Shown: one piece after another, positions 10,427 through 12,748 of the stretch
Position numbering within the stretch: the stretch's first letter is position 1
How the letters are laid out: each line of letters opens with the position of its first letter
Assembly: GCF_023055435.1 (NCBI RefSeq)
Contig: NW_025963868.1
Coordinates: forward strand, 2,914,001-2,978,000
Reading direction: 5' to 3'
Length of the DNA: 64,000 bases
Origin: Haliotis rufescens
Lineage: Eukaryota
The notes under the pieces: generated by a model
What the model was told of the DNA's origin: nothing
Seen by the model: only the letters and a program-made list of their open reading frames with translations
Database searches by the model: none
Made by a program: the position numbers and the translations under genes

Positions 10427-11416
10427 AACAAGTATTTGTCACAGAGTGACGAAATATCCCCCGCCATATACACCATAGTACCAAATATGAAGACAATCCA
10501 GCGATTAGTTCTTGAAATATTGTGGCAACACCGTTTTCCAACTCCAAAAACAGATTTGCCTGCTGTGACCTTGAAAATGGGATCAAGGTCACCAAATCTG
10601 ACAGGTGTATGCGGTGTCTGTATATACACCATAGTTCCAAATATGAAGACAATCCAGCGATTAGTTCTTGAGATATCGCGGCAACACCGTTTTCTAACTC
10701 TAAAAGCAGATTTGCCTGCTGTGACCTTGAAAATGGGATCAAGGTCACCAAAACCGACTGGTGTCTGCGGAGTCTGTATATACACTATAGTTCCAAATAT
10801 GAAGACAATCCAGTGTTTAGTTCTTGAGATATCGCGGCAACACCGTTTTCCAACTCCAAAAGCAGATTTGCCTGCTGTGACCTTGAAAATGGGGTCAAGG
10901 TCACCAAAACCGACTGGTGTCTGCGGTGTCTGTATATACACCATAGTTCCAAATATGAAGACAATCCAGTGTTTAGTTCTTGAGATATCGCGGCAACACC
11001 GTTTTCCAACTCTAAAAGCAGATTTGTCTGCTGTGACCTTGAAAATGGGATCAAGGTCACCAAAACCGACTGGTGTCTGCGGAGTCTGTATATACACCAT
11101 AGTTCCAAATATGAAGACAATCCAGTGTTTAGTTCTTGAGATATCGCGGCAACACCGTTTTCCAACTCTAAAAGCAGATTTGTCTGCTGTGACCTTGAAA
11201 ATGGGATCAAGGTCACCAAAACCGACTGGTGTCTGCGGAGTCTGTATATACACCATAGTTCCAAATATGAAGACAATCCAGTGTTTAGTTCTTGAGATAT
11301 CGCGGCAACAAACAGGTGGGACGTACGTACGGACGGACGGACGGACGGACGGACGTACGGACGGTCGTGAATACTATATCCCCCGCTTCGCGCTTTCGCG
11401 CGGCGGGGGATAAAAA
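10427..11416 (-). mobile_element. Helentron-associated non-autonomous element (HINE/pearl/DINE-like) with an internal 156-bp tandem array (~5.4 units)
   Basis: Minus strand reads TTTTTATCCCCCGCC subterminal repeat plus hairpin, a (ccgt)n microsatellite, the 156-bp cores, GGCGGGGGAT, a 3' hairpin tatttcgtcac-tct-gtgacaaata, and ends cttgTT. Confidence 0.88.
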
Positions 11417-11931
11417 TGCAACCAAATATCAATGTGACTCCCCGACCCCATCCCCAGTGGAATGATACATATCCTTACCTTAATCCAATCAAACACAAAT
11501 AGCACAGCTCTATAGCACTGAGTAAAGCACTTCTGTATTAACAATAAACAGTGTTTTCCTAAAAACAACACACAGTTCATGTTTACTCTGTTGACTGGCA
11601 TTAAGGAAGTTCAAACGCAGTAAAATAATTGAACCGACAACATTTCACTGATTGGTATGAGGAGAAGGTGTCTTCAAGCTTCACACGAGTGGGTAGAACT
11701 TTTGACCATAGCGGTGATAACTCACCGGATGCCTATTGTGTAATTCTTATTCTTTGACTGACATTTTTATATACTTGTTACAACTGCTGCTCAATAAACC
11801 ATGTTTGTGTATATATTCAAGTTGGTATTTCCGCTATCCAAAGTGTGCAGTGGGGCCATCTTATTGTTGATAGTCGTTTGGAGACATTTTTCTCATTTAT
11901 TCACGCACTCGTTAATTTCAAGATTTACAGT

Positions 11932-12399
11932 AGTTTCCATTTGGGTATCGACGCGTAACAATTAAATCTGTGAACTCATGATGATCTAGTTGTTCCCTTA
12001 GTCCCCACACACGATACATGATAATAGTCTTTATGTCGAGCAATACCTCAGCCTTTGGGGTCTTTTGAGGTACGACCGAGCATGATCTTTCTACGAAGAT
12101 TTCAAAGAACATCATACGACTCTTGCTCAAAAGTTATTTGATCAAGGTTACAGCATTCAAGGCCCTAGTAAAGCTTTCAAAACATTTTATGGTAGACATG
12201 TGGAGGACATTTCCAAATTTGAAGCATCAATAACAAAAATGATGTCTGATGCAAATTGCATATTTTGACTTGTACCAAATGTTTCGGTGTTTTTTGAGGT
12301 GATCAATTGACTTGCATTTGCATATGTTTTTGACGGGTGCCACCGTTAGGGCAGAACAAGCTTACGTCTTTGCAAACACCTGGTAGCATCACTAGCTCG
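11932..12399 (+). mobile_element. Penelope-like retroelement relic (Naiad/Chlamys-type RT C-terminus plus 3' motif)
   Basis: Translates to FMSSN..SAFGVF/LRYDRA*SFYEDFKEHHTTLAQKLFDQGYSIQGPSKAFKTFYGRHVEDISKFEASITKMMSD. This resembles the SNIP..AYGV..LIRYARACS..DF..KL..QGY..F.KFYGRH pattern of these elements. Flanked by a 22-bp direct repeat (11910-11931 and 12400-12421). Confidence 0.8.
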
Positions 12400-12473
12400 C
12401 GTTAGTTTCAAGATTTACAGTGGCAGCCTGTGATAATGAGCCTGGATCAGACAATCCAGTGATCAATATTGTG

Positions 12474-12748
12474 TTTTGTTTGTTTGTTTGTTTGTTGTTT
12501 AATGCCGCACTCACCAATATTCCAGCTATATGACGGTGGTCTGTAAAATAATCGAGTCTGGACCAGACAATCCAGTGATTGACATCATGAGCATCGGTCC
12601 ACGCAATTGGGATCGATGACATGTATCAACCAAGTCAGCGAGCCTGAGCACCCGATCCCGTTAGTCGCCTTTTACGACAAGCATAGTTGCCCTTTACGGC
12701 AAGTATGGGTTGCTAAAGACCTATTCTACCCCGGAATCTTCACGGGTC
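12474..12748 (-). mobile_element. SINE family B, full length, nested in an older B-like copy (~12420-12880)
   Basis: TSD atcaatattgtg. Degenerate B body continues on both sides. Confidence 0.88.

Follow-up and report, generated by a model that had tools for sequence, protein, structure and literature searches.

A decayed Naiad fragment in Haliotis rufescens: a TGA at a conserved cysteine that is most likely neutral decay, and a conserved pseudoknotted RNA fold at the 3′ end of its family

The TGA codon that interrupts a Penelope-like reading frame in the 64,000-nucleotide stretch of Haliotis rufescens DNA analysed here (the window) is most likely the product of neutral decay in a cysteine-coding copy, and the tail of the same element holds a decayed copy of a conserved RNA fold, which by prediction forms a dimer and has roughly even chances of being a ribozyme. 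We hold this combined reading with good confidence. The original prediction had taken the TGA for a possible selenocysteine codon.

The insertion is a 5′-truncated, frameshifted fragment of a high-copy, cysteine-coding Naiad family within the Penelope-like elements (PLEs). By homology to other copies it occupies positions 12030 to 12394 on the + strand, decayed, truncated at its 5′ end and clipped at its 3′ end, and contains the C-terminus of the reverse transcriptase (RT) and part of the 3′ UTR; patchy homology upstream of 12030 may extend to about 12002. A search of the 1.33-Gb genome with the window stretch gave 6080 candidate places, and among the best 40, which were scored, the other matches are 79–86% identical to it. 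Copies of the family share a common 3′ end and are truncated at many different points on the 5′ side, and the fragment differs from the column majority at 40 of 331 columns. Direct repeats of 27 nt bracket it on the + strand (11905 to 11931, with a second copy at 12395 to 12421; 89% by repeat comparison) and are possibly a target-site duplication.

The deletions and frameshift claimed just upstream of the TGA are present. Pairwise alignment to a well-kept copy (L011) places two deletions within 12045 to 12064 (+ strand), 9 nt after 12045 and 13 nt after 12063 (frameshifting), so the frame holding the TGA is cut off from any upstream RT frame. The stop at 12266 to 12268 had been read as that of the element, but it is the product of a 1-nt insertion within 12253 to 12255 (+ strand); the family frame continues ...DAIPYFDLYH. 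The true stop of the family, from the column-majority translation and length counts, is a TGA that likely maps to 12300 to 12302 (+ strand), its exact position being uncertain because the preceding T-run varies between copies. A Pfam scan of the 83-aa read-through frame matched 0 families.

The assignment to the Naiad type was borne out by family copies, in which an N-terminal GIY-YIG, the CX4CxxC, CxC and DKA motifs and a C-terminal RT were all found. A GIY-YIG endonuclease domain lies at the N-terminus in locus L218 and in 26 genomic copies, two Cys separating its GIY from its YIG, and L218 also has the 3′ end of the window element at 78% identity. Upstream of the GIY-YIG, the majority of 9 copies have a CX4CxxC finger, which falls within the CX2-5CxxC definition used for Naiads, and long genomic copies show the CxC motif as TCGCQ and DKA as TDKAS (DKG changed). 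The RT is C-terminal, without an endonuclease behind it, and the ORF ends about 70 codons past the Cys, as it does in homologs P0001–P0005; the protein search used a 176-aa open piece of copy L013 as query and gave 9 longer proteins among 328 candidates. Of the own-genome loci matching the 3′ end, 10 of 69 have a second match, several of these being split pieces of one copy. The domain order and motifs are those of the Naiads described in the accessible part of Craig et al. (2021, PMC8557442), such as Naiad_CGi, Naiad_Sglo, Naiad_Olur, Naiad-2_Skow and Naiad-2_Pfla. As far as that part goes, heavy 5′ truncation and high copy number are likewise common to non-Sec Naiads and the window family, whereas the window copy, set against a published non-Sec consensus, is a dead fragment. 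By its sequence features, the window element is an ordinary member of the Naiads and not a Sec-Naiad.

Behind the reading frame, TGAC-GGGTG at 12331 to 12339 and CACC-TGG at 12377 to 12383 had been noted, and both are present, 63 nt behind the stop at 12266 to 12268. The suspicion that 12331 to 12383 is special held up, in that the stretch is part of a conserved RNA structure, but the proposed SECIS or kink-turn core is ruled out, since this structure has a different fold and gives no SECIS match. The motif consists, in order, of an outer stem, a GGGUG/CACCU helix, a 10-nt palindrome, GCAG, a 5-bp pseudoknot, GCUYAC and a second palindrome. The family sequence runs as outer stem arm, C, GGGTG, CCACCGGTGG, G, GCAG, GATAC, GCTCAC, a short pyrimidine run, TTCGCGAA, CACCTG, GTATC, a hairpin and outer stem arm.

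Family alignment places a decayed copy of this 3′ motif at 12320 to 12394 of the window, on the + strand as are all of its parts. The 5′ arm of the core helix, GGGTG at 12335 to 12339, has CACCT at 12377 to 12381 as its partner, the first pair being G-U; covariation does not bear on this helix, because the letters of both arms were fixed by the search pattern. There follow palindrome A at 12340 to 12349 (family CCACCGGTGG, with two changes in the window copy); GCAG, the 5′ arm of the pseudoknot (12355 to 12359; family GATAC, window AACAA) and GCTTAC, together at 12351 to 12365; palindrome B at 12369 to 12376 (family TTCGCGAA, window TTTGCAAA); and the 3′ arm of the pseudoknot at 12383 to 12387 (family GTATC, window GTAGC). 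The copy ends inside the last hairpin and so lacks the outer stem's 3′ arm. Because 1 of 5 pseudoknot pairs survives and the 3′ end is missing, the window copy of the motif is almost certainly non-functional.

Outside the window, the motif is found well beyond this family. The Naiad supplement of PMC8557442, searched with four 8–9-letter terms, contains at least 10 consensus records in which the same layout recurs with other palindromes and other complementary 5-mers, including Naiad_CGi, Sglo, Olur, 2_Skow, 2_Pfla and Cmel (names taken from the following header and table order), none of them Sec. Metagenome contigs were scanned with a pattern that fixes the junction letters only, the palindromes and pseudoknot being N, and gave at least 122 matches. 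In 25 of them a Naiad RT lies on the same strand, no more than 600 nt upstream; by profile search there are 1 further same-strand case and 2 RT-linked cases on the opposite strand. Invariance of the core letters is fixed by the pattern, and is independent only in the supplement matches and the own-genome copies.

Palindrome A, in all five of its pairs including the centre, and the 5-bp pseudoknot covary between families. Matches were grouped into clusters by their flanks, the first member (not the best) being taken from each. Across the 13 RT-linked clusters, the palindrome A pairs are Watson-Crick in 11, 13, 13, 11 and 13 (3.7–7.0 when shuffled) and the pseudoknot pairs in 11, 12, 13, 12 and 11 (4.4–7.4 when shuffled); the palindrome centre and the middle pseudoknot pair each score 13/13, vs 4.2 and 4.4 in shuffles. 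The 35 clusters formed from 103 AT-rich matches (GC up to 55%) give 28–32 of 35 for the palindrome pairs and 23–33 of 35 for the pseudoknot pairs, with a second palindrome of at least 6 nt in 21/35 (11% in shuffles) and an outer stem more than 2 kcal/mol better than shuffles in 21/33. The remaining 19 matches, GC-rich and without RT (15 clusters), have no pairing signal and served as a chance control. In 25 rows chosen by hand as diverse and well formed, the cells that pair make up 94.6% and the covariation score is 0.723, vs 0.167 shuffled and 0.09–0.13 slid. All four pair types are present at several positions, and the relatedness of the rows inflates the shuffle tests. The G-U pairs point to the + strand as the RNA. 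When a model built from the 25 rows was run on 34 own-genome loci selected solely for their RT likeness, 20 proved to contain the motif; in the window, whose own row is part of the model, it makes a single match. The motif lies 3′ of the Naiad RT on the sense strand, with palindrome B and the outer stem over-represented, and the double-palindrome pseudoknotted RNA of Naiad 3′ ends is well supported as a conserved structure.

The matches also include several other arrangements. Among the metagenome records (L044–L164), 97 of the at least 122 matches have no Naiad RT in the fetched flank, and two large clusters, of 33 and 36 rows, resemble short high-copy elements around the motif. A second family of the H. 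rufescens genome (L166–L194) has the same RNA motif with palindrome CTACCGGTAG and pseudoknot GACAT/GTGTC; most of its copies share 100–350 nt only, with no RT nearby, and represent either severely truncated copies or a non-autonomous element. Together, the two own-genome motif families give 582 matches. Two full copies of the motif lie close together in few own-genome loci, and one locus has motifs of two different families on one strand, 535 nt apart (L207: 800–901 and 1335–1437). At L056 a well-formed motif (1272–1320, − strand) is antisense to, and downstream of, a GIY-YIG-like open frame (318–999, + strand) with no Naiad RT match; this locus may represent another PLE clade or an inverted copy. 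Viral contigs gave 1 match, GC-rich and without the palindrome, which we read as chance.

By the features compared, the fold is not a hammerhead, a twister or an HDV-like ribozyme. A search of Rfam with 20 good motif examples gave no family match (E≤10), which bears on each of the comparisons here. A hammerhead is rejected, the CUGANGA and GAAA core with three helices being absent from the alignment; the motif further differs from the hammerheads of PLEs in having two palindromes rather than one, and a pseudoknot. Twister ribozymes have a U-A cleavage step, a catalytic G-A step and two pseudoknots formed from the P4 loop; a single pseudoknot was found in the motif, and both steps are absent by inspection, so that twister is rejected as well. 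HDV-like ribozymes are characterised by a G1-U wobble, a nested double pseudoknot, L3 and a catalytic C in J4/2; the motif has a G-U first pair followed by G, but the order of elements is different, and this class too is rejected.

There is a partial resemblance to twister-sister-like ribozymes, for which the consensus was taken from the accessible part of PMC11620745 only. Their catalytic loop, G7-C8-U9-C10/A11-A12 with G36-C37-N38-A39-G40, resembles the GCUYAC and GCAG of the motif. The class is characterised by an internal loop between two stems, GCUC/A(A,U) facing GC(N)AG, which the motif matches partly in sequence and with a different connectivity. In the motif a 5-nt pseudoknot loop connects the two strands, in the twister-sister-like RNAs a stem. 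The motif also lacks the extruded N38, has C at position 12 and varies at the first base of GCAG; the change A12C nearly abolishes the twister-sister-like ribozyme of LINE-1 (same part of PMC11620745).

For PLEs other than Naiads, the available text of PMC4209133 and PMC6765202 describes hammerheads, with palindromic loops or a palindromic helix III, whose working form in tandem transcripts is a dimer. These minimal hammerheads of the pLTRs occupy the same region of the element as the motif, and share with it a loop-less palindromic helix that needs a second copy. Naiads, on the other hand, are reported without canonical hammerheads in the part of PMC8557442 at hand. A description of the motif was not found in the literature searched, which extended neither to subscription papers nor to bioRxiv supplements and supplement figures, and the RNA fold is for that reason only provisionally called undescribed, as it appears to be. 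The accessible portions of 10.64898/2026.07.22.740005, PMC10085705 and PMC5737381 do not describe it, nor do text sections 6, 15 and 20 of PMC8557442.

Other 3′ ends in File S5 of PMC8557442 look different by eye: Naiad_Scon, Naiad_Mmer, Naiad_Smim and two further records have twister-like motifs with two adjacent palindromes (clams) or a hammerhead-like core (spider). The double-palindrome motif was not seen, again by eye, in the last ~630 nt of the clam Sec-Naiad and spider Naiad sequences, and a 19-mer of the clam twister-like type has 0 matches in the H. rufescens genome. The 3′ ends in File S5 suggest that the ribozyme-like RNA of this region differs from one Naiad branch to another.

How might such an RNA function? 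We infer an RNA dimer because the centre pair of a 10-nt palindrome without a loop covaries, and because the motif occupies the region of the dimer-dependent hammerheads of other PLEs. In all 14 sequences tested, the predicted homodimer is more stable than two monomers, by 5–17 kcal/mol, the comparison being with monomers and not with shuffled sequences. The palindromes would pair two copies of the RNA, either within one tandem transcript that has two pLTR copies or between separate transcripts, and the short conserved junction strands (C-GGGUG, GCAG, GCUYAC and CACCUG) would form the core. There is about an even chance that the motif would act as a self-cleaving ribozyme. The candidate cleavage site would be GCUY/AC, by analogy with twister-sister-like loops, or alternatively C/GGGUG, which we presume from a likeness to HDV-like ribozymes. 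Self-cleavage, if it occurs, could cut read-through RNA of tandem copies into units, as has been proposed for the dimer-dependent hammerheads of other PLE clades. A broader version of this proposal, to which we give somewhat less than an even chance, is that a candidate new class of small self-cleaving ribozyme occurs throughout a large branch of Naiads, which takes in cnidarian-order records, bivalves, hemichordates and fish, and that this RNA, with a pseudoknotted core and two loop-less palindromes, cuts only as a pair, sits in the hammerhead slot of other PLEs and is present in thousands of genomic copies.

Alternatively, the 3′ fold could be a real RNA structure that is not catalytic but acts as a dimerisation or packaging signal, or as a binding signal for the RT or endonuclease that sets the start of reverse transcription; we consider this a serious competitor, with chances that fall a little short of one in two. 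The covariation data fit it equally, and the lack of a ribozyme family match fits it as well. The 97 of at least 122 matches without a nearby RT are what is expected for a 3′ cis signal kept by every truncated copy, and, according to the part of PMC11167929 available, a Poseidon PLE starts reverse transcription inside an RNA stem-loop. Read evidence points in the same direction. A sequencing-run search with L058, which belongs to a related family and not to that of the window, listed no run containing it that is on record as RNA; four raw RNA runs from 2026 with the same species label were mapped on L058, and the reads come from both strands and span the motif with no pile-up of starts or ends. 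The missing pile-up is weak evidence, however, because most copies are decayed and because a proven PLE hammerhead likewise gave none (PMC11167929, in the same part). Against a purely structural role are the position of the motif, where other PLE clades have their hammerheads, the twister- or hammerhead-like 3′ motifs of some Naiads that do not have this one (~630 nt, by eye), and the compact, fixed junction strands and pseudoknot, which resemble small ribozymes. The reads on L058 also have a sense/antisense imbalance near 800–890, where a few loci can dominate.

It is improbable that the palindromes act instead in double-stranded DNA as binding sites for dimeric proteins, of which loop-less palindromes are typical, because the palindrome sequence is free between families (27 distinct perfect 10-mers among the matches) with the symmetry kept, and because the palindromes are embedded in a covarying pseudoknot and in stems with G-U pairs.

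The motif touches on a stated open point, since Naiads are reported, in the available part of PMC8557442, to thrive without the hammerhead of other PLEs; a conserved, covarying and dimer-shaped RNA in the hammerhead slot suggests that the slot may be filled by another structure. If the RNA cleaves, animal genomes would gain a further class of natural ribozyme, together with a two-palindrome switch that counts copies. If it does not, the motif would still be a defined cis element for the Naiad RT.

With regard to the TGA, the original prediction gave the frame and its coordinates correctly. The codon, at 12083 to 12085 (+ strand), stands in the frame tac gac cga gca TGA tct ttc tac, which stays open for 60 codons up to the TGA at 12266 to 12268. 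The codon falls on a conserved Cys, which is kept in 7 of the 8 homologous proteins that reach the site in frame (Cys in P0002–P0008, Ser in P0001). That Sec-Naiads with UGA at Cys positions and SECIS elements exist is published (PMC8557442, in the part available). What failed was the inference that the parent family encodes selenocysteine. A genome-wide census with an exact 24-nt pattern, N at the third codon base, matched 343 places; the family state is TGC, and TGA, far from being the consensus, occurs in 12/343, the other 331 not being TGA. A by-eye count of the first 100 matches listed gave 88 TGC, 6 TGT, 5 TGA and 1 TGG. The chance mutation that had been offered as a caveat is therefore the favoured reading, namely a TGC-to-TGA decay at the Cys of the RYNRAC motif of the family. 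A cysteine-coding Naiad copy would have inserted, and the TGA would have arisen afterwards by neutral mutation.

The rate at this codon is slightly above background. With N at every C of the pattern, C-to-A changes number 5 here vs 3, 0, 1 and 2 at four neighbours, and C-to-T changes are also highest here (9 vs 4–6; both by eye in the first 100 of 746 matches). Background non-CpG C-to-A change is 33/1619, or 2.0%, in 28 copies; against this, 12/343 has p=0.05, or p=0.09 when one tandem duplicate is removed. Off-frame TGC triplets have similarly low rates of decay to TGA. The codon site is at most a mild mutation hotspot. Six of the closest 29 copies have TGA, but ranking by likeness to the window favours TGA, and 3 of the 6 are one local duplication. 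A codon tree of 38 rows, with the codon masked, duplicates L025, L033, L035 and L037 left out and 200 bootstrap trees, is a star in which 15 TGA rows need 8 changes and a single TGA clade occurs in 0% of bootstrap trees. The TGA label is weakly clustered (12/500 shuffles). A TGA subfamily is rejected, the TGA rows being scattered over the tree.

The published UGA sites of Sec-Naiads, in the accessible part of PMC8557442, are the Cys before GIY-YIG, the first CCHH Cys, DKA+8 and CX2-5CxxC. In the window family, TGA is found at the Cys before GIY-YIG in 0/26 rows (12 TGY, the others gapped or different), at the first CCHH Cys in 0/26 and the second in 2/26, at DKA+8 in 1/29, at CxC in 0/15 and at the CX4CxxC Cys in 0/9. 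Naiad_Scon, Naiad_Mmer, Naiad_Sdum and Naiad_Smim (same source and part) share with the window copy only the UGA on a conserved Cys; they have 3–4 consensus UGAs at zinc-finger and DKA Cys positions and a grade-A SECIS, whereas the window family has Cys at those positions and no SECIS. Rfam found no SECIS in the window stretch (E≤10) or in 10 copies (E≤5), although a genome-wide SECIS_1 control was also empty and sensitivity is not demonstrated; a home-made SECIS pattern matched 1/42 copies vs 1.3% in shuffles. Since the family state is TGC and no SECIS was found, the combination fixed beforehand as decisive, the selenoprotein reading is refuted. That the family or a subfamily encodes selenocysteine at 12083 to 12085 is hardly credible: the conserved Cys, the known Sec-Naiads, the slight excess over background and the TGA among the closest copies speak for it, but nearly all copies differ, those with TGA form no clade, the known Sec sites are Cys, and the Cys of the RT thumb lies outside the published Sec sites (PMC8557442, as far as available). 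The claim was an ordinary false alarm, for which the copy census provides a model screen in similar cases.

Other repeats flank the fragment. Directly downstream, positions 12420 to 12740 are another interspersed repeat, with many matches in the fetched own-genome loci. Upstream, 10440 to 11420 contains a tandem array whose units are ~148 bp long; behind it come a (GACG)n microsatellite and, at about 11380 to 11410, a GC-rich hairpin. We take this array to resemble a Helitron-derived non-autonomous element.
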